A stretch of DNA of 32,209 nucleotides from an uncultured Candidatus Peribacteria bacterium. GTDB lineage: Bacteria > Patescibacteriota > Gracilibacteria > Peribacterales > Peribacteraceae. The notes under the pieces were generated by a model that saw only the letters and a list, made by a program, of their open reading frames with translations, ran no database searches and had not been told where the DNA came from. A program made the translations under genes and the position numbers. Where the stretch lies: positions 1-32,209 of the forward strand of contig CAZUFJ010000018.1 of assembly GCA_964619805.1 (NCBI GenBank), read 5' to 3'. This document shows, one piece after another, positions 5,565 through 28,448 of the stretch (position 1 is its first letter; every line of letters starts with the position of its first letter).

Positions 5565-5593
5565 CCCCGCAGCCGGGACGCCGCGTCCCGGAG
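5565..5593 (+). repeat. GC-rich stem-loop element, copy 1 (CCCCGCAGCCGGGACG-CCG-CGTCCCGG)
   Basis: 8-bp stem CCGGGACG/CGTCCCGG (5573-5580 and 5584-5591) with a 3-nt loop, 47 nt downstream of the stop at 5518. Related copies at 8503-8534, 23456-23483 and 24813-24837, all in the same orientation relative to the upstream gene. Confidence 0.8.
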
Positions 5594-6730: not shown

Positions 6731-8395
6731 TTACTTGGTCTTGAGGAGCAGATACTCATAACCTTCGCTGACTGCCTGGAAACTGGCCTCGATCATGTCT
6801 GTGCTCACACCTGTTGTCGTCCAGGAATCTACGCCATCGGTGAATGCTACGAACACTTGAACCGATGAAGCAGTTCCTTCATTCGACTGCATTGCTTTTT
6901 CGATGTGAAAGTCGACAAGATTCAGTGAGTTTACGTGCGGGAATTTACTCACGAGTGCTTTTGAAAGAGCATTGGAAAGAGCATCCACAGGTCCGTTGCC
7001 ATTCGCAACTTCGTGATTAAGTGTGGCGCTTCCAAAAACACTTACTTTGATTCTAGCTTCAGCAGGCTCACCTAGCGTGTCTGTCACTGTAGGATTTTTT
7101 ACGATGCGAAACGTTGGTCGAAAAGCCCCTGCCACTTGAAGAGCCAAAAGTTCCAATGATGCCCGGGCACGATCGTATGAAAAGCCCTGCGCTTCCTTCT
7201 CTTTCATTTTTTCGAGGATGGCGCCCTGCACAACTGTTTCTCTTAGTATTTTATCGCGTACTGATTCAGGGATGATTCGACTCGATTGAACTAGTGATCG
7301 CACGTTTGAGAGCCCCGCCTGCTTCGAGCCAACAATTTTTCTTTCATTTCCGAACCAACTGGGGTCGGCAAATTCATATGCTTGCTTGCTTCCGTTTCCA
7401 GTCCTCTCCATCCCTGACGCATGCATGCCACCCTTGTGCGCGAAAGCACGGTCGCCCACAAACGGCTGACCGGGATGACGCCGTTGCCGCATGATTTGCG
7501 CAACATTGCGTGAAGCCCATGTGAGGCGCTTCGCAGGTTCAGGGGAAACCATCTCCATCACCCTTAAGTTCCCGATCGCCTCGCATAAATCGAGATTGCC
7601 TGCTCTTTCTCCTTCTCCATTCCATGTGCCTTGGACATGTCGTGCTCCATTTTTTACTGCAGCAAACATGTTGGCCGTCGCAAATCCACGGTCATTGTGT
7701 GGATGGATGCCGATCATCACCCCCGGAAATTCCTTTGTTATCGCCGCAACTGCATTACCAACCTCATCGGGGTCCGTTCCACCGTTTGTATCACAGAGAA
7801 CAAGCCTTCGTAATGCCTTACCTCCACCATCAAGCGCCGCTCGCAGTGTGAGCAATGCATGCACCGGGTCTTCCCTCCATGCATCAAAAAAATGTTCTGC
7901 ATCATATGTTAAGTCATCGCGATGTTTTGCTAGAAAACCCATTGTTTCAAAAATCATATCGCGATTTTCTCCAGCACTTGCCCGGATAACTTGTTCCACT
8001 TGGAAACGAGAGCTTTTGCCAACAATCGTGAGTGCAGGTGCTTCGCTTGCCAGCAGTGCCTGCAGCCCTTCATCGGTTTCAGCTTGGGATCCACGACGGC
8101 GCGTCATACCGAATGCTGCGAGCGTTGTGAATTTCAATGGGTTGCGAAGGAGCTCTGCAAATGCATCGCGATCAACAGTATTCGATAGGGGATAGCCACC
8201 TTCAACGTACGGGATGCCGAGATCGTCATCCATTCGAGCGATTGCAACTTTGTCACGTGCGTTCATATTCACGCCATCTGCCTGGTCGCCGTCCCGTGGT
8301 GTCACATCGTAGAGTTCTATCGAGTTTTCCATAATGAAGGGGATAAGAAAAAGCCTCTCTGCCTTGTGAGCGAGAGGGGATTTGGACATCAGCAC
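6731..8395 (-). CDS. cimA: Citramalate synthase / 2-isopropylmalate synthase family protein (CimA-type)
   Basis: HMGL-like catalytic motifs: ELYDVTPRDGDQ, GIHPHNDRGFATAN, GTWNGEGERAGNLDL. AFAHKGGMHASG is CimA-like rather than the LeuA-type AFAHESGIH. A C-terminal LeuA-dimerisation-like domain is present. The true start may be the internal MENSIELYDV at 8332. Confidence 0.82.
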   Translation of the reverse strand: MLMSKSPLAHKAERLFLIPFIMENSIELYDVTPRDGDQADGVNMNARDKVAIARMDDDLGIPYVEGGYPLSNTVDRDAFAELLRNPLKFTTLAAFGMTRRRGSQAETDEGLQALLASEAPALTIVGKSSRFQVEQVIRASAGENRDMIFETMGFLAKHRDDLTYDAEHFFDAWREDPVHALLTLRAALDGGGKALRRLVLCDTNGGTDPDEVGNAVAAITKEFPGVMIGIHPHNDRGFATANMFAAVKNGARHVQGTWNGEGERAGNLDLCEAIGNLRVMEMVSPEPAKRLTWASRNVAQIMRQRRHPGQPFVGDRAFAHKGGMHASGMERTGNGSKQAYEFADPSWFGNERKIVGSKQAGLSNVRSLVQSSRIIPESVRDKILRETVVQGAILEKMKEKEAQGFSYDRARASLELLALQVAGAFRPTFRIVKNPTVTDTLGEPAEARIKVSVFGSATLNHEVANGNGPVDALSNALSKALVSKFPHVNSLNLVDFHIEKAMQSNEGTASSVQVFVAFTDGVDSWTTTGVSTDMIEASFQAVSEGYEYLLLKTK

Positions 8396-8540: not shown

Positions 8541-10259
8541 CTAATACACTACTTTTTCATAGCAGGATTCGCAGAGGATTTGTTCCTTACGATCGGGAGA
8601 AAATGTCGTTTGGAGATCTTTTTTGCAGTTTGAACACTCTCGATCCCAGAGACGACGGGGGTTCCTGCGCTCCATGCGAAGGCGATGACGTTCGTCGGGG
8701 TGAAGGCGGGGGATTGGGAGCTTCATCTCTCGATAAAACTCCAGTTCTTGCTTGATCAATTTGAATGGTCGTTTTGTAGCCTCGCATTCAATTGCCCAGT
8801 TTAGGATGTCATCTGGAACCTCATCAATAGAGCTTGGCAGTGCGGATGCAGGAATAATTTTTTCGGCTTTTGGTACCTCTTCTTTTTGGGTTCGCCATTT
8901 CCACCCACGCTTTTTTACATCTTTTTCAGTGAGCGGGTAATAATCCTGCGCTAATGACTCGTTATAGTCGTACGGAGCTGTTTCCATTGGGAAAAACTCA
9001 CCCCATTCCTTTGCCTGCCCCGCCGTAGCTCCGTCTGAGCGAAGGGGGGTCTTTCTCATATGCTCAATAATCCGGGGCACCAGCTCTTCATATTCCTCCT
9101 TGGTGTATTGCTTATTCAAAATGCAATAGTTCTTGTGTCTCAGACTGATACAACCGAAGCAATCGCCACATGTATTCATCGTGTCGCAGTAGTGCACGTT
9201 GCGGGATGTCCACGATCCCACGGTAAACAGGCAACCATACGCGCCGTATCCATAGCTTGTGCCTTCGTATCCTAGCTCTGCCTCCGTCGTGTGGCATACA
9301 TCCATCAGGTCCTTCACCTTGAATCCTGTGTACACGAATGCGCAATCTTCGCCGTACGAAAGATCGAAAGAGTGTCGAAGGTTGCGCGAATTTTGCAGGT
9401 AGTCGCCCTCCACGTTTTCACAATTCACGATGAAATGTGCGCGATGAGGTTGGGTACTGAGAAATTTTGCAAATTCATTTTGCATGGAGGCAATGCCTTC
9501 TGCTTCGATGCGCTTGAAGATTTCTTTCTTGCGCCTTGCAAATTCCTCCTCCGATAGCTGCTCGTTCTTGAAATTGAATTTTTTGTTGCGAAGGTTCACC
9601 GAAAACAGACTGTCGCTACATCCTTTGCAATCAAAAAGGAATGCAGACGTGTTGCAATTGGTACAGTTTTGCGAGAACGAGAGCTCGTAACATTTCTCGC
9701 AGTCCACAACTTCGTAGCATCGTTCCGATTCGTAGCAGTTAAGTGCATCAATGCACGATCGCGATTTGATGACCTGGGTGCCATAGTGACAATCCTCATC
9801 GTATTCCGCTGCGAAGAGCAAGTAACAATTTTTGTTGTACCCAGACATATTCACGTACGGAGAATTTTCGTTATTGAGAGCAATGAGTCCGAGTCTCGGC
9901 ACAACTTTTCGTAGCTCATGCAATTGTTCAAAAAATGAACGTGAAAAATCAAAATCTTTTCCATACGAGAGTGGATCCCACACATCGCTATTCCAAATGT
10001 CAGGCGCGTACACGACGAGTTCTTTTTCCGGTGAGTGTGCGGAGATAAAATCTTTTTTCGAAAAATCGCATGTACGGTGATAGAGCTTCCGCTCATTCCT
10101 CCACACAAGCCGGCGTTGCTGCCTGCAATCGGGACAGTGTGTCGGTGGGGGAATCTGCATTTTCTTGCCACCAAAGACAGGTGAAACCTTCGCAAGGAAT
10201 GCCAGATCTTCCTCGGAAATTTCAAACGTACTGCCGCAGGATGCACACACTTTCTCCAT
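8541..10259 (-). CDS. Cys-rich zinc-ribbon repeat protein, paralog C
   Basis: 572-aa ORF. N-terminal CASCGSTFEISEEDLAFL..HCPDCRQQRRLVWRNERKLYHRTC. Two Cys-rich repeat blocks. The C-terminal DDILNWAIECEATKRPFKLIKQELEFYR..RNPRRLWDRECSNC..CESCY is near-identical in pattern to paralog A. Starts 24 nt downstream of tRNA-Pro. Confidence 0.85.
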   Translation of the reverse strand: MEKVCASCGSTFEISEEDLAFLAKVSPVFGGKKMQIPPPTHCPDCRQQRRLVWRNERKLYHRTCDFSKKDFISAHSPEKELVVYAPDIWNSDVWDPLSYGKDFDFSRSFFEQLHELRKVVPRLGLIALNNENSPYVNMSGYNKNCYLLFAAEYDEDCHYGTQVIKSRSCIDALNCYESERCYEVVDCEKCYELSFSQNCTNCNTSAFLFDCKGCSDSLFSVNLRNKKFNFKNEQLSEEEFARRKKEIFKRIEAEGIASMQNEFAKFLSTQPHRAHFIVNCENVEGDYLQNSRNLRHSFDLSYGEDCAFVYTGFKVKDLMDVCHTTEAELGYEGTSYGYGAYGCLFTVGSWTSRNVHYCDTMNTCGDCFGCISLRHKNYCILNKQYTKEEYEELVPRIIEHMRKTPLRSDGATAGQAKEWGEFFPMETAPYDYNESLAQDYYPLTEKDVKKRGWKWRTQKEEVPKAEKIIPASALPSSIDEVPDDILNWAIECEATKRPFKLIKQELEFYREMKLPIPRLHPDERHRLRMERRNPRRLWDRECSNCKKDLQTTFSPDRKEQILCESCYEKVVY

Positions 10260-10283
10260 GCTCGGATTTTACTACGAATTCCT

Positions 10284-10359
10284 TGGTCGGGACGAGAGGA
10301 CTTGAACCTCCGGCCTCACGGTCCCGAACCGTGCGCTCTACCAACTGAGCTACGTCCCG
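10284..10359 (-). tRNA. tRNA-Pro (anticodon CGG), CCA encoded
   Basis: The minus strand reads CGGGACG-TA-GCTC-AGTTGGTA-GAGC-G-CACGG-TTCGGGA-CCGTG-AGGCC-GGAGG-TTCAAGT-CCTCT-CGTCCCG-A-CCA. Full cloverleaf, and the anticodon loop is TT-CGG-GA. Confidence 0.95.
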
Positions 10360-10572
10360 AATACGTTTGGTGATGGAAAGATCAGATCGAGGGCGAGCGT
10401 GCGATTCTTTATGACGCGCCGCAAGCGGCGCTAGGCAACTGAGCTACGTCCCGATACGTTTGGTGATGGAAAGATCAGATCGAGGGCGAGCGTGCGATTC
10501 TTTATGACGCGCCGCAAGCGGCGCTAGGCAACTGAGCTACGTCCCGAATACGTTTGGTGATGGAATGATCAG
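10342..10572. repeat. Tandem repeat, about 2.5 copies of 93-94 bp, containing the 5' 18 nt of tRNA-Pro plus about 75 nt of its upstream leader
   Basis: CAACTGAGCTACGTCCCGA starts at 10342, 10436 and 10529. Copies 1 and 2 are identical except for one A (CCCGAATACG versus CCCGATACG). The third copy diverges after GTGATGGAA near 10565. Each unit carries a GCGCCGC-AA-GCGGCGC hairpin. Confidence 0.95.
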
Positions 10573-10681
10573 GATAGTCCCGATCGCGTGGCATCCTACA
10601 GGAGTATGACAGTGGAGAGCCAGGCGCTTGTGCCGCGATCAGCATTTCGATACGGTACATGGGTTCTTTCCTCCTTCACCT

Positions 10682-11239
10682 ATGCAACGCAAGTACATCT
10701 GGATCGGTATTGCCGTCCTTCTCGGTGTCTGGCTCTGGTCGAGCTACAACGGACTCGTACTGGGGCGAGGCCGAGTGGCTGCATCGTGGGCGCAGGTGGA
10801 GACGCAGTATCAGAGGCGCTTTGATTTGGTGCCCAATCTCGTAAGTACCGTGAAGGGCGCGGCGAATTTTGAGCAGGAGACGCTTCTTCAAGTGACGGAG
10901 GCACGCACGAAGTGGCTTTCGAACTCAAGCCCGACGTCACGGGTGGATGCGGCGCAGCAGCTCGATGGTGCGCTCTCACGCTTACTCGTCACGGTGGAGG
11001 CGTACCCGCAGCTCCAGGCGACGCAGGCATTCCGTGATCTCATGACGCAGCTCGAGGGAACCGAAAACCGCATCGGAACCGCGAGGCGCGATTACAACCT
11101 GGCGATTCTGAGTTACAACTACCGTGTCCGACGGTTCCCGACGAACATCGTTGCGAAGGTGTTTGGCTTCACCGGCGAAAAACTGTTCGGGAGCGTCGAG
11201 GGATCCGAAAATGCGCCGACCGTTGATTTCGGAAGCTGA
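10682..11239 (+). CDS. lemA: LemA family protein
   Basis: N-terminal TM helix (IWIGIAVLLGVWLW). LemA signature QVETQYQRRFDLVPNLVSTVKGAANFEQETL..EAYPQL.A...F..L...LEGTENRI...R.DYN. I prefer the start at ATG 10682 over 10628. Confidence 0.9.
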   Translation: MQRKYIWIGIAVLLGVWLWSSYNGLVLGRGRVAASWAQVETQYQRRFDLVPNLVSTVKGAANFEQETLLQVTEARTKWLSNSSPTSRVDAAQQLDGALSRLLVTVEAYPQLQATQAFRDLMTQLEGTENRIGTARRDYNLAILSYNYRVRRFPTNIVAKVFGFTGEKLFGSVEGSENAPTVDFGS

Positions 11240-12090
11240 TGCTGCGACGCACGTCGCTGATCGGCCTTGGACTTCTGGTTGCAACCTCCGCATTTGCGTT
11301 CGAGGTGCCGCCCAATGACGGGTTTGTCACGGATACTGCAGCCGTGCTTTCAAGCGCAGAGGAGAGCGCTCTCGAGGCGAAGCTTGGGGCGATCCGCACG
11401 GCGACGTCGAATGAGATCGCGATCCTTATTGTGCCATCACTGCAAGGTGAAGAGATTGCGGATGTTTCCGTAGAGGTCGGTCGGAAGTGGGGCGTTGGTA
11501 CAGCGGAGAATGACAGCGGCATCCTGATCCTCATGTCGTATGAGGATAAGCAAATCTTTATGGCAACGGGGTATGGGCTCGAGGGAGCGGCACCTGATAT
11601 CGTTGTGAAGGGCATCGTGGACACCGACATGGTTCCACTCTTTAAGGAAGGCAAATATGCTGCCGGGCTCGAGGCCGGCGTCACGGCGCTTGAGAAACAC
11701 ATCGCGGGCGAATACACGGCCGAGCGATACAGGCAGCAAGAGGGGAGTGTGTTCTCCTTCTGGATTGTCTTTGCAATGTTCATTCTGATCCAATGGCTCG
11801 GTGCGATCATGGCGCGAACGAAATCGTGGTGGCTCGGCGGCGTTGTCGGTGGCGTGCTTGGCGTCATCCTGACGATCATCATCAGCTTCTGGCTCGCGAT
11901 CCCGATCTTCGTCGCTCTCGGGCTTGGACTCGATTACCTCGTTTCACGAAACTTCAAATCGAGAGCCAAGACGAAGTGGTGGGCGGGCGGAGGTTGGGGT
12001 CCCGGTGGCAGCGGAGGAAGTAGAGGAGGGGGCTTCGGTGGATTTGGCGGCGGCTCCTTCGGTGGCGGTGGCGCGGGAGGACATTGGTAA
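11239..12090 (+). CDS. TPM domain-containing protein (YgcG-like) with a Gly-rich tail
   Basis: Signal/TM, then FVTDTAAVLS..E..LE.KL......T.NEIAILIVPSLQGE.I......V.RKWGVG....DSGILIL.S..D....ATGYGLEG, which is a classic TPM/DUF477 pattern. TM helices and a GGGWGPGGSGGSRGGGFGGFGGG tail follow. The ATG overlaps the lemA TGA (TGATG). Confidence 0.9.
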   Translation: MLRRTSLIGLGLLVATSAFAFEVPPNDGFVTDTAAVLSSAEESALEAKLGAIRTATSNEIAILIVPSLQGEEIADVSVEVGRKWGVGTAENDSGILILMSYEDKQIFMATGYGLEGAAPDIVVKGIVDTDMVPLFKEGKYAAGLEAGVTALEKHIAGEYTAERYRQQEGSVFSFWIVFAMFILIQWLGAIMARTKSWWLGGVVGGVLGVILTIIISFWLAIPIFVALGLGLDYLVSRNFKSRAKTKWWAGGGWGPGGSGGSRGGGFGGFGGGSFGGGGAGGHW

Positions 12091-23394: not shown

Positions 23395-23448
23395 GTATCC
23401 TAGCCCTAGCCCTAATCCTACTCCTAATCCTAATCCTCATCCTCATCC
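23395..23448. repeat. Nine tandem hexamers (plus strand GTATCC TAGCCC TAGCCC TAATCC TACTCC TAATCC TAATCC TCATCC TCATCC)
   Basis: Read directly. On the minus (transcribed) strand it is GGATGA x2, GGATTA x2, GGAGTA, GGATTA, GGGCTA x2, GGATAC. It ends 4 nt before the riboflavin kinase ATG. Confidence 0.95.
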
Positions 23449-23455
23449 TGCGCGA

Positions 23456-23483
23456 CCCCGGGACGCGACATCCCGGCTGCGGG
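23456..23483 (-). repeat. GC-rich stem-loop element, copy 3
   Basis: The minus strand reads CCCGCAGCCGGGATG-TCG-CGTCCCGGGG. It differs from copy 1 at two positions in and next to the stem, one of which turns a C-G pair into a U-G wobble. It lies 7 nt after the stop of the SLH gene. Confidence 0.8.
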
Positions 23484-27671: not shown

Positions 27672-28448
27672 TTATCGAAGAACCAGCGCTCTCGGAGTCC
27701 CTGTCATCGTCTCCTCTTTGACCCCCGTCCAATCGTGGACTGCAGAGATCAACACATCTTTCGAATAGCGATATTCAGCACCGCGTTTCGTGCCAACGTC
27801 ATTGGTGATGAATGCATCATTATCGTATCCGATCACAACAAGCATGTGATACCACGGGCCTTCGCCGCTGAAGTACGGGTTGCCGAGGTCGCGACCGGCG
27901 GCAGGGATGATGATAGGATGACCCTCTGAAAGAATGCGCTCAAAATTTTCCTCGGAAATATCGGTGATCATCTCTCCATTGAGTCCGTAATGATCGCGCG
28001 CAATGGTCTGAAGTTGCGTGATCGTCACGTCATATCCATATCCATTCGCAGTTTCCCACGCGATCAATGCTTGAAGTTCATCCTCCATCTGTTGCTCGGT
28101 AATCCCTTCCCCTCGCAAAAATTGTCGGACGAGAATGAGCGACGCCTCCTCGCACGATTCCTCATGCAATGCATCCCAATTTGCAAATGGTGCCTGCGAT
28201 GCGAAGGGCACTTTGATCAAGACGCTCCCGGGCACAACTTCCGCCTTGGGCGTTTCTTCCGCAGCCGGGACATCGGGTCCCGGGGAAGAGGTTGCAGCTG
28301 CAGCTGATGAATTCGTTGTAAGAGAAGAAATAGAAGATGAAGAAAATGAACTCTTCGACGGCAGATCAAAAACGACCTCCGGTTTGCGGTTACAAGCGAT
28401 GAGAGCGAGAGGGATTGCGATGCCGACGAGGATGCGGAATGTCTTCAT
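27672..28448 (-). CDS. Lipoprotein with a C39-like (papain-fold) peptidase domain
   Basis: MKTFRILVGIAIPLALIAC has a lipobox. A Ser-rich linker follows. VPFASQAPFANWDALHEESCEEASL and YHMLVVIGYD resemble the Peptidase_C39_2 Cys and His regions. I prefer the start at ATG 28448. Confidence 0.6.
   Translation of the reverse strand: MKTFRILVGIAIPLALIACNRKPEVVFDLPSKSSFSSSSISSLTTNSSAAAATSSPGPDVPAAEETPKAEVVPGSVLIKVPFASQAPFANWDALHEESCEEASLILVRQFLRGEGITEQQMEDELQALIAWETANGYGYDVTITQLQTIARDHYGLNGEMITDISEENFERILSEGHPIIIPAAGRDLGNPYFSGEGPWYHMLVVIGYDNDAFITNDVGTKRGAEYRYSKDVLISAVHDWTGVKEETMTGTPRALVLR

Follow-up and report, generated by a model that had tools for sequence, protein, structure and literature searches.

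The closest described systems are the tRNA-linked repeats (TLRs) of E. coli, known from tyrT-tyrV and 9 other loci (Egan and Landy 1978, Rudd 1999, in PMC8144298). TLRs are non-coding, adjoin a tRNA or rRNA gene inside an operon, and are present in 1-5 units per locus. Each unit lies downstream of the gene and carries an 18-19-nt exact copy of the 3' end of the neighboring tRNA, and TLRs are transcribed together with the tRNA, some of them yielding small RNAs that are processed from the precursor (PMC8144298).

We found that a tRNA-Pro gene of an uncultured Candidatus Peribacteria bacterium is preceded by an array that resembles TLRs in mirror image. The window, the whole 32,209-nucleotide stretch of DNA that we analyzed (GenBank assembly GCA_964619805.1, contig CAZUFJ010000018.1), contains tandem minus-strand units of 93/94 nt that precede an intact tRNA-Pro(CGG) gene (10342-10572; period 93, 2.5 copies, 97% matches, score 448 in Tandem Repeats Finder). 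As in TLRs, the units abut a tRNA gene and carry an exact 18-19-nt copy of one tRNA end; relatives have from 1 to at least 4 of them, and this locus has 2.5. In contrast to TLRs, that copy, the first 18 nt of the unit, is the 5' end of the tRNA downstream. The bodies also differ. The unit described here has a hairpin, an A-rich linker and a box complementary to the D-arm (anti-D box); it is ~93 nt long whereas the tyrT TLR unit is 178 bp, it has no sequence similarity to TLRs, and modules of this kind are confined to one CPR family. True 3'-type units, copying the 3' end of a tRNA, are present in the same genome as well, behind tRNA-Asn. The features of the locus, all on the minus strand, are:

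10284-10359, minus strand: intact tRNA-Pro(CGG), CCA encoded (ARAGORN; Rfam RF00005, 69.9 bits, E 1e-14)
10360-10393, minus strand: proximal spacer L, CCCTCGATCTGATCTTTCCATCACCAAACGTATT, CT-rich, with T at tRNA position -1
10394-10403, minus strand: proximal anti-D box, CGCACGCTCG, with the core CGCTC complementary to tRNA GAGCG (nt 22-26)
10404-10415, minus strand: proximal A-rich linker, GTCATAAAGAAT
10416-10431, minus strand: proximal hairpin GCGCCG-CTTG-CGGCGC (covariation on 45 modules)
10432-10453, minus strand: proximal decoy head (10436-10453, exact copy of tRNA nt 1-18) and CCTA junction (10432-10435)
10454-10546, minus strand: distal full unit (covariance model R1), 100% identical to 10361-10453
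10454-10486, 10487-10496 and 10497-10508, minus strand: spacer, box and A-rich linker of the distal unit
10509-10524, 10525-10528 and 10529-10546, minus strand: hairpin, CCTA and head copy of the distal unit
10547-10570, minus strand: partial third copy L', GATCATTCCATCACCAAACGTATT, leader only, one A>T (copy 2.5 in Tandem Repeats Finder; repeat search)
10571-10576, minus strand: putative -10 element TATCCT, 24 nt upstream of the first head copy

The 18-nt sequence that begins the tRNA, CGGGACGTAGCTCAGTTG, was located at three places: in the tRNA itself (10342-10359) and in the two identical heads, 94 and 187 nt away. In a head search, the distal head had a 19 nt 5' extension. Besides the hairpin, every full unit contains a TCATAAAGAAT stretch. 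The two 93-nt copies were found to be identical by repeat search, and the only differences in the array are one A/T missing from the middle unit (CGTAT-CGGG vs CGTATTCGGG) and the single A>T change in the partial third copy. An earlier note on this DNA had described truncated tRNA heads, each with the same leader and followed by the intact tRNA, a hairpin in each unit, and nearly identical copies; Tandem Repeats Finder, ARAGORN and the head coordinates agree with that description. A search with RF00005 at E<=1 over 9500-11500 returned the true tRNA only, and ARAGORN found no tRNA within the units. Elsewhere in the same genome, the window unit gave tRNA-core matches only.

Integrase attachment (att) sites of genomic islands and prophages likewise consist of a direct repeat of a partial tRNA gene next to the intact gene. 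At att sites it is the 3' part that is repeated (anticodon loop, T-loop or 3' end), and kilobases of cargo and an integrase lie in between. Here, in contrast, nt 1-18 are copied and 75 non-coding nt lie between the repeats, with no integrase and, as the earlier note had pointed out, no cargo. We consider a scar left at an attachment site by an integrative element to be highly improbable, and place an assembly artefact, which the earlier note had also raised, in the same category. In favor of an artefact, the metagenome-assembled genome is broken into 116 contigs, and many related contigs terminate inside modules. However, Logan contigs from two metagenome runs (X1 and X2) contained all three distinct contexts of the array with zero mismatches: tRNA body-head-AA-leader, Q-head-A-leader, and Q-head-AA-leader. 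The junction between truncated head and 57-nt body was therefore not invented by the assembler. In addition, many independent assemblies have the same layout, some of them consisting of 1-4 contigs. An artefact is improbable because the raw contigs carry the junctions and the architecture recurs independently. Logan contigs are short-read k-mer contigs of ~4-7x depth that are unable to count copies, and k-mer depth gave rough hints of approximately one standard and one diverged unit in X1 and approximately two units in X2. The strain in these runs diverges from the window upstream of 10566. The figure of 2.5 copies is best read as a lower bound.

The earlier note had proposed a comparison with related genomes, and this revealed a conserved module in front of many tRNA genes throughout the family. 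We built a covariance model of the module, R1, which defines a class-1 "5' tRNA-linked" leader module. R1 matched 191/200 family genomes and 80/84 genera at E<=0.001; at E<=1e-6 it matched 33/41 family genomes and 0/~260 genomes from the other families of the class. Both window units scored 81 bits, the top score among all matches. A strict junction pattern found one record in a species-representative collection, and this pattern is too narrow. A tRNA was located 88-107 nt downstream of all 73 modules examined, and what followed each of the 73 copies was either a tRNA or a further unit of its array. The tRNAs served are those for Pro, Trp, Lys, His, Arg, Val, Ala, Thr, Phe, Met and Ile. Arrays, ranging from 2 to at least 4 units, are common, and we found at least 16 of them in other genomes. 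In older arrays the units have diverged, and the hairpin has been retained through compensatory changes (G000 C94). The tandem repeat before tRNA-Pro is real and is an amplified form of this conserved leader module. The module was previously undescribed. The earlier note missed that it is family-wide, that it copies the cognate 5' end, that its hairpin covaries, and that its box covaries with the body of the tRNA.

The module begins with an exact copy of tRNA nt 1-18. This is followed by CCTA, a GC hairpin of 6 bp, an A-rich linker, the YGCTC box and, last, a CT-rich spacer. The window units conform to this order, with a CCTA(G) junction, the 6-bp GC hairpin, CGT, the A-rich linker and a YGCTC(G) box. 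The head covers the 5' strand of the acceptor stem, the 5' strand of the D-stem, and the D-loop to G18. In 73 loci it began at +1 and stopped at G18/G19, and in 60/73 modules it was the same as the cognate tRNA over 17 nt. The head follows D-loop variants that are specific to individual tRNAs (e.g., CAGTG, CAGTCCG, CAATGG), and in tRNA-His modules it retains G-1 (8/8). Such identity could reflect youth or gene conversion instead of selection. A T at position -1 was found before the head copies at 51/63 loci and before the true tRNAs at 54/63, with no bias at -2 to -6. The T upstream of the first head could have been inherited from the original 5' flank of the tRNA if the module entered at nt 18/19.

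We found that the hairpin is maintained by compensatory change. In 45 modules, 91.4% of cells were paired, and 33 cells, at 4/6 pairs, had changed on both sides. None of 500 shuffles was as high (0/500), and slid controls gave 33-52%. This points to a folded strand instead of a spacer. A different pairing, between GCTC of the head and the 3' strand of the hairpin, was predicted by RNAalifold for the first 11 modules. It had compensatory support at 0/8 pairs, and because of this we dropped it in favor of the local hairpin.

The YGCTC box is complementary to tRNA nt 22-27 (the 3' strand of the D-stem plus nt 26-27), and it covaries with the tRNA. The base 5' of GCTC was C in 16/16 loci with G26 and in 0/14 loci with A26 (Fisher 7e-9), including switches within Trp, His and Val tRNAs. 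The sum of box helix extensions was 45 compared to 19.9+-4.4 for permuted pairs, and the longest box complement averaged over 69 loci was 5.51 compared to 4.79+-0.11; loci of the same tRNA type are related and not independent, which makes the P values from the Fisher and permutation tests too optimistic. The box helix is mostly 5-6 bp, and one subfamily has GCGCG instead of GCTCG. We also asked if head and body might form a pseudo-tRNA that supplies the 3' strand of its own acceptor stem. Downstream of the box, complementarity to head nt 1-7 was 163, compared to 160.6+-3.0 in permutations (P=0.27), and we rejected this structure.

In the genome of the window, head copies were found 84-100 nt from their tRNAs (62 nt at tRNA-Asp) or at multiples of the unit length, with an overall range of 62-187 nt. 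There were none between 200 nt and 4 kb upstream of tRNAs, which rules out autonomous or cargo-bearing versions of the module within that distance in this genome. Prefix copies of 7-19 nt with varied inserts are also present, nearly all of them 84-100 nt upstream, and there are plain partial pseudo-copies at tRNA-Arg(CCT) on contig C73 and tRNA-Asp on contig C48. Among the related loci, a second type of hairpin element forms a clean 60-nt insertion within a decoy head (L036 compared to L035). In other genomes of the same genus, the module at tRNA-Pro(CGG) was absent from one (G002), and a different element was in its place in another (G001). The module is gained and lost between close relatives.

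These modules have several properties of REP/BIME elements and MITEs: they are short and gene-less, have a GC hairpin, and occur in many copies per genome, sometimes in tandem. Unlike such dispersed elements, all 73 copies examined were placed and oriented in one way with respect to a tRNA gene, and they bear a head and a box specific to the host tRNA. No association of the modules with a RAYT or transposase was seen. The modules might still be a non-autonomous mobile cassette, consisting of hairpin, A-rich linker, box and spacer, that inserts between G18 and G19 of the tRNA D-loop. Duplication of nt 1-18 would restore the gene, leaving the original head upstream with the promoter and a new head downstream; arrays would form by later slippage, and any effects on RNA would be secondary. 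This would account for similar bodies before unrelated tRNAs, each with the head of the local tRNA, for a promoter spaced from the first head as it normally is from a tRNA, and for patchy presence at tRNA-Pro(CGG) inside one genus. The clean 60-nt insertion of the second hairpin element is a point in its favor as well. On the other hand, the genome lacks any copy that is autonomous or carries cargo, the modules are not linked to a recombinase or nuclease, and an 18-nt duplication with its left edge always at tRNA +1 (-1 for His) matches no known transposition chemistry. Nor would a mobile cassette account for the match of the box to position 26 of each host's tRNA or for the compensatory evolution of the hairpin over the long term. 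We think that a mobile cassette is unlikely.

The covariation data also bear on the notion that the modules are functionless, decaying tandem duplicates of tRNA genes, which we regard as rather unlikely. A whole gene plus spacer (~76 + 18 nt) would have been copied, and the upstream copy would have kept its promoter and 18 nt while its body was overwritten by REP-like hairpin DNA. Gene conversion would maintain the identity of the heads and the similarity between loci. At 88-107 nt, the unit is as long as a tRNA with a short spacer, and the prefix copies, the two plain pseudo-copies and the 3'-end mirror units behind tRNA-Asn are what decaying duplicates might look like. However, neutral remnants in genomes of 0.8-1.5 Mb would be expected to decay or to be deleted between 18-nt repeats, whereas the module is present in most of the family at both thresholds given above. 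Furthermore, the body cannot be aligned to that of the cognate tRNA, the hairpin has 33 double-change cells and 91% pairing, and the box follows N26 of the tRNA.

The earlier note had suggested promoter amplification. According to this idea, each unit would contain a promoter (TTGCCT ... CATAAAGAAT), and extra units would boost expression of tRNA-Pro and whatever lies downstream. The TTGCC at the head junction does look like a -35 element, and the A-rich stretch is -10-like in some units (e.g., TTATAAAAAA, GATAAAAGAAT). A consensus scan of 10150-10750, in contrast, found 0 promoter-like sites and no sigma-70-type promoter or terminator inside the units. Across loci, the gap from TTGCCT to the A-rich stretch is 18-22 nt, compared to 16-18 nt in tandem sigma-70 promoters, and it is occupied by the GC hairpin with its compensatory evolution; the last T of the -10 hexamer is mostly absent. 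The consensus of the A-rich linker, CGTnATAAAAAA, was kept across alignments A1-A5 and lies outside any sigma-70 promoter match. A better -10 sits ahead of the first head, where it is also recognizable in related single-unit loci. Of 31 related loci, about half have a TAnnnT hexamer ending 8-15 nt before that head, and tRNA genes that have no module show the same spacing. We consider promoter amplification very unlikely.

Our results are most consistent with a different arrangement, to which we assign a probability of about 0.5. The array would be 2.5 units of a family-specific "5' tRNA-linked repeat", a ~93-nt leader that lies between promoter and tRNA and is amplified by recombination or slippage. 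An ordinary tRNA promoter just upstream of the first head probably transcribes the module, which would make the module a 5' leader of the pre-tRNA. The unit matched no transcriptome run. At this locus, the start of the primary transcript is likely to be L' (10547-10570). The heads, direct repeats 93 nt apart, would drive unequal recombination or replication slippage, the latter listed in the earlier note as a possible explanation. The copy number appears to have been raised recently in this genome because the two full units are identical. The same events between heads could also delete the module precisely.

In the precursor, the head copy may replace the true 5' end of the tRNA and pair with the 3' acceptor strand and the D-arm. 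The result would be an alternative L-shaped fold in which the variable pocket of the D-loop accommodates the remaining leader as an insertion. In 28/33 precursors, the minimum-energy fold paired the 3' acceptor strand with a decoy head, and the window precursor had three alternative folds within 9.4 kcal/mol; folding energies speak to feasibility only. The pairing of the box competed with the alternative tRNA-like fold rather than aiding it. RNase P would cut 5' of each head copy and at the true +1, releasing ~93-nt leader RNAs and finally the tRNA, and the anti-D box may hold the 3' strand of the D-arm until the leader is removed. The purpose of the module could be that of a timer or check on maturation, or that of a source of tRNA-specific small RNAs; both are candidates.

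Known substrates of RNase P fit parts of this scheme. U-1 is the preferred and commonest base in bacterial RNase P substrates (PMC10465520), and most head copies, like the true tRNAs, have T at this position. We found a type A RNase P RNA in the genome of the window (G000:C23:5862-6255) and in 24/26 relatives, which rules out a lack of RNase P RNA as the explanation for the leaders. In known cases where pairing between leader and 3' end modulates RNase P, a few leader bases pair with RCCA. Structured leaders of this kind and the module would both alter how the acceptor end is presented to RNase P (PMC9433436). The known structured leaders differ in that they do not combine a full sense copy of the first 18 nt with an anti-D box, as is the case here.

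An RNA becomes a substrate of RNase P once its 5' part pairs with a strand ending in NCCA to give an acceptor-stem-like helix (PMC11143913), the external guide sequence principle of Forster and Altman (reviewed in PMC11143913). A head copy paired to the 3' strand of its tRNA would qualify, with the cut falling exactly where the copy starts. The guide in this case would be part of the same transcript and, according to our model, common to several competing 5' strands. The 3' acceptor strand might thus be a built-in external guide that directs RNase P to a site before every decoy head, making the array a polycistronic source of ~93-nt RNAs. Each RNA would start with the 5' end of the tRNA and bear a tRNA-specific anti-D box. 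Such RNAs, or else the leader before it is cut, would act on the cognate tRNA and control its folding, maturation or stability, with copy number tuned by recombination between heads. We consider this stronger version possible, although not likely.

If the leader reading is correct, then the tRNA genes of a whole CPR family would be expressed via a conserved leader that mimics the 5' third of the tRNA and pairs with its D-arm, a layer of control over tRNA maturation undescribed for bacteria. It would be a natural counterpart to the engineered external-guide principle for RNase P. It would also provide, on the 5' side and in a distant phylum, a mirror image of the long-puzzling TLRs of E. coli, which hints at a general logic in which copies of tRNA ends serve as processing punctuation. 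On the practical side, the modules break short-read assemblies at tRNA genes, and in the annotation of CPR genomes they could be mistaken for att scars or pseudo-tRNAs. The CT-rich spacer at the end of the module, of the GATCTTTCC type, was found again at other loci.

The array at tRNA-Pro(CGG) is one amplified case of an undescribed, structured tRNA leader module that occurs throughout the family. An earlier note had claimed a 2.5-fold tandem repeat of the 5' end and leader of tRNA-Pro, and this repeat was confirmed with Tandem Repeats Finder (10342-10572; period 93, 2.5 copies, 97% matches), a repeat search of the window (10361-10453 and 10454-10546, 93 nt each, 100% identical), and ARAGORN and Rfam for the tRNA. 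The repeated head is nucleotides 1-18 of the tRNA (CGGGACGTAGCTCAGTTG). The leaders differ by one T missing in the middle leader and one substitution in L', a partial third leader copy. The features of the locus are:

10576-10571, minus strand: -10-like TATCCT, the first element in minus-strand order
between TATCCT and head copy 1, minus strand: leader L', 24 nt
10546-10529, minus strand: head copy 1, then a 57-nt body and leader
10453-10436, minus strand: head copy 2, then an identical body and leader, then the tRNA
10284-10359, minus strand: intact tRNA-Pro(CGG) (ARAGORN, Rfam)
8541-10259, minus strand: gene for a Cys-rich protein (572 aa; weak treble-clef zinc-finger match), starting 24 nt past tRNA-Pro
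10682-11239, plus strand: LemA gene
11239-12090, plus strand: TPM-domain gene, forming with the LemA gene a divergent pair that flanks the array

Paralogs of the Cys-rich gene are present within the window (inverted repeats I1 and I2). Elsewhere in the window, a telomere-like hexamer run (CCTAAT, CCCTAG, CCTCAT; 23397-23449) lies immediately before a 26-nt GC palindrome, CCGGGACGCGACATCCCGGCTGCGGG (23456-23483), that recurs twice more, in both orientations (5566-5591 and 28259-28285). A comparable CCTAAT/CCTACT run lies 5' of tRNA-Lys(TTT) on another contig (C105) of the same genome.

The repeat had been taken for a unique local feature. We found instead that the module recurs across the family before many tRNAs. 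In a DNA search of 40 relatives, several genera shared a 170-nt head-body-leader-tRNA arrangement in single copy, and the same design was found in relatives' loci 5' of tRNAs Pro(TGG), Pro(CGG), Lys(CTT), Lys(TTT), His, Trp, Arg(TCG) and Val(GAC). Eleven modules were used to build a covariance model (R1), whose 70 positions comprise the head, CCTAG, a 6-bp hairpin, an A-rich linker and a GCTCG box. R1 matched 191 of 200 family genomes, representing 80 of 84 genera; individual genomes had 1-20 matches. At E<=1e-6, 33 of 41 genomes of the family had a match, compared with none of ~260 from other families in the class. Rfam has no entry for the module, and full-text literature searches found no description of 5' modules of this kind, in CPR or elsewhere.

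We found that each module is linked to its cognate tRNA. Module nucleotides 1 to 17-19 were the start of the local tRNA in every locus inspected (e.g., CGGGGCG in both places in the relative G014, and GGGTCAG for Lys). The anatomy was determined from 73 loci, with sequences taken via two module alignments (A3 and A5). Every module was followed 3' by a tRNA or by the next unit of the same array. The head copy lay 88-107 nt upstream of the tRNA +1, began at +1 (the 5' extension was mostly 0-3 nt) and ended at G18/G19, with tRNA-specific D-loop variants mirrored. Head and cognate tRNA were identical over 17 nt in 60 of the 73 loci, and mismatches were evenly distributed between nucleotides 1-7 and 8-17. 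The array is unlikely to be an att scar, as att duplications repeat the tRNA's 3' portion and have cargo between the copies.

The hairpin of the module is well supported. Among 45 modules aligned to R1, 91.4% of cells were paired, with 33 double-change cells at four of the six pairs, in an alignment that was fitted to the model and so favours structure somewhat; the pair types (CG, UA, AU, GC) were unambiguous. None of 500 shuffles reached the observed value, and slid controls gave 33-52%. One module subtype has a tandem G.A/A.G in mid-stem.

A second constraint was found at the YGCTC(G), or anti-D, box ~40 nt 3' of the head. The base 5' of GCTC was C in all 16 loci in which the tRNA has GAGC-G (nucleotides 22-26), and in none of the 14 with GAGC-A (T in 10, A in 3, G in 1). 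The association of this base with tRNA nucleotide 26 was strong (Fisher, 7e-9), although this and the following P values are optimistic because the loci are phylogenetically related. Helix extension past GCTC/GAGC summed to 45, compared to 19.9+-4.4 when tRNAs were permuted among loci, a comparison that kinship likewise makes optimistic. The tracking is not only an effect of tRNA type, since the switch was seen within Trp, His and Val. When the 3' segment of the leader was compared with cognate nucleotides 20-31 in 69 loci, the longest complement was 5.51, versus 4.79+-0.11 in permutations, of which 0/400 reached 5.51 (again optimistic for related loci). The complement extends to 8-10 bp in three Pro loci (GCGCTCTACC). 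In one subfamily, GCGCG replaces the GCTCG box.

These constraints bear on two other views of the module. A mobile insertion module behind the tRNA-linked units could account for the local heads, shared bodies and patchy occurrence, and a second hairpin element is indeed a clean insertion within a decoy (upstream) head (locus L036 compared with L035). However, no autonomous copy or linked enzyme was found, no known chemistry fits a duplication of 18 nt with tRNA +1 as its boundary, and the box covariation would be left unexplained. Alternatively, decay of tandem tRNA duplicates may well have given rise to the modules. A unit is as long as a tRNA plus spacer, and the window's own genome contains prefix copies of 7-19 nt with differing inserts, nearly all 84-100 nt upstream; prefix copies of at least 8 nt were found at 7 of 39 tRNAs versus none in the downstream control. 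Decay by itself would not explain the constraint on hairpin and box, nor the persistence of modules given easy precise deletion.

Roughly half of 31 loci had a TAnnnT hexamer (TATAAT, TACAAT, TAAAAT, TACACT and others) that ended 8-15 nt 5' of the first head, the same distance as at module-less tRNA genes in the window's genome and in G002, a relative of the same genus. The hexamer was farther off where an extra L' was retained (24 nt in the window, 34 nt in G019). A consensus scan found no sigma-70 promoter or intrinsic terminator inside the units. A search of RNA runs found none that contains the unit. Because the hexamer is 5' of the first head and the scan found no promoter inside the units, we infer that the module is a transcribed 5' leader. 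The same two observations make promoter amplification, which had been proposed as the basis of the array, unlikely.

The head copy comprises the acceptor strand, U8 and A9, the 5' strand of the D-stem, and the D-loop to G18, and would supply all that the 3' two-thirds of the tRNA need on the 5' side. It stops at the variable pocket of the D-loop, a place where tRNAs tolerate extra bases. The precursor could therefore adopt two folds: the native one, or one in which the decoy head is used and the remaining leader becomes a D-loop insertion. Minimum-energy folds made the acceptor stem with a decoy head in 28 of 33 precursors, and the three alternatives for the 289-nt precursor of the window were -93.2, -83.8 and -87.0 kcal/mol.

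In bacteria, RNase P cleaves at the 5' boundary of an acceptor-type helix, and would do so at decoy heads too. The window's genome and 24 of 26 relatives have type A RNase P RNA. His head copies retain G-1 (8/8). T was directly 5' of the head copy in 51 of 63 loci and of the true tRNA in 54 of 63; positions -2 to -6 were unbiased. The -1 base was identical at both sites in 45/63, as expected for two independent T-rich columns; it has therefore not merely been copied along with the head. Among substrates of bacterial RNase P, U is both favoured and most frequent at -1 (PMC10465520). The exact +1 start, His G-1 and T at -1 fit cleavage at decoy heads. The T 5' of the first head may instead be inherited from an old tRNA flank, if the module entered at nucleotide 18/19. 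The anti-D box would be in competition with both D-stems; it might serve as a delay or a check, or act through the leader RNA once released. In the window's genome, the RNase P RNA gene (C23:5862-6255), which scored 88.7 bits, short of the Rfam cut-off, precedes a module with tRNA-Thr(TGT) (C23:6317-6489) by ~60 nt.

Relatives have one module, i.e., two heads ~94 nt apart, and this single module is the ancestral state in relatives. Direct repeats of at least 18 nt at ~94-nt spacing are a classic substrate for slippage or unequal crossing-over, by which whole units are gained or lost; such events between heads would add or remove units here. The earlier interpretation was thus partly right about the mechanism of expansion, if not about uniqueness. 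Since both full units are identical, the expansion in the window appears recent. No fewer than 16 other loci carry arrays, of 2 to at least 4 units each; these include three identical units in G069 and arrays in G021, G023, G125, G088, G105, G106, G184, G186, G192 and G210; at least 4 tandem units in G187 run off the contig end (G187:C112:1325-1796, L105). In an older array on C94 of the window's genome, the units have diverged and the hairpin is preserved through compensatory change. Turnover is fast, as congeners differ at tRNA-Pro(CGG): G002 has a plain promoter-tRNA junction without a module, the expected remnant of precise loss between heads, and G001 has a different hairpin element.

An assembly artefact had also been proposed, and is unlikely. 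The locus was found in two metagenome runs (X1 and X2), as Logan k-mer contigs only, at depths of ~7x and ~4x. Mismatch-free raw contigs covered the tRNA-head-leader-body-junction path (10342-10443) and the body/head junction with the single-T (10425-10483) and double-T (10512-10558) variants, so all three head contexts are present in raw data. The 2.5 copies are a minimum estimate, since assembly would merge identical middle units and the k-mer contigs give no count. No contig in either run covered 10566-10780, one 506-nt contig joined 10782 to 243 nt of unrelated sequence, and a diverged unit body (...CGAGGACGAGCGCGCGATTATTTGATA) was attached to the same hairpin at depth 7.4. These results indicate that the X1/X2 strain diverges from the window in the 5' part of lemA and immediately upstream of the array; its unit content probably differs as well. 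Many R1 matches in the family are at contig ends, and many contigs start or end within a module (e.g., G045:C16, G021:C74, G078:C53, G119:C11, G182:C1, G018:C2 and G212:C19), as expected if arrays break short-read assemblies. This suggests that short-read MAGs often collapse or break module arrays.

The closest described kind of element is the tRNA-linked repeats of E. coli. The module is their mirror image, upstream and starting with the tRNA 5' end, and its body is different and conserved. The window's genome also has a 3'-side repeat of the E. coli type: two tandem 87-nt units (C71, 7534-7707) behind tRNA-Asn(GTT) (7459-7533), both ending in TCGGGGGAGCCA, the tRNA's last 12-13 nt. One such unit is behind tRNA-Pro(CGG) of G002 (L015:1571-1666), with a hairpin (GTCCCGCAAAGCGGGAC) after the tRNA and, ~80 nt downstream, a copy of its last 14 nt (TTTCGTCCCGACCA).

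A second kind of module has a head copy that ends after 7-13 nt, often past GTAGYTC; behind it come a hairpin element of the CCGCCTTCG...CTACGGCGGG type and a CT-rich spacer, and the module again lies ~91-100 nt 5' of the tRNA. Its locations are:

C63, own genome: tRNA-Arg(GCG)
C94, own genome: tRNA-Gln
C93, own genome: tRNA-Tyr
C84, own genome: tRNA-Ser(CGA)
L031:269-354 and L036:130-260, two further loci

In G023, this element is a clean 60-nt insertion in the decoy head of a Val module of the first kind (L036 vs L035). Further partial 5' tRNA pseudo-copies were found just upstream of genes in the window's genome: Asp on C48 (nucleotides 1-9, a hairpin and nucleotides 17-26, with a 14-nt leader repeated), Arg(CCT) on C73 (nucleotides 1-32, diverged, without a hairpin), Ala on C58, and His on C41 (GGCGAGC and a 10-bp hairpin, directly adjoining the tRNA).
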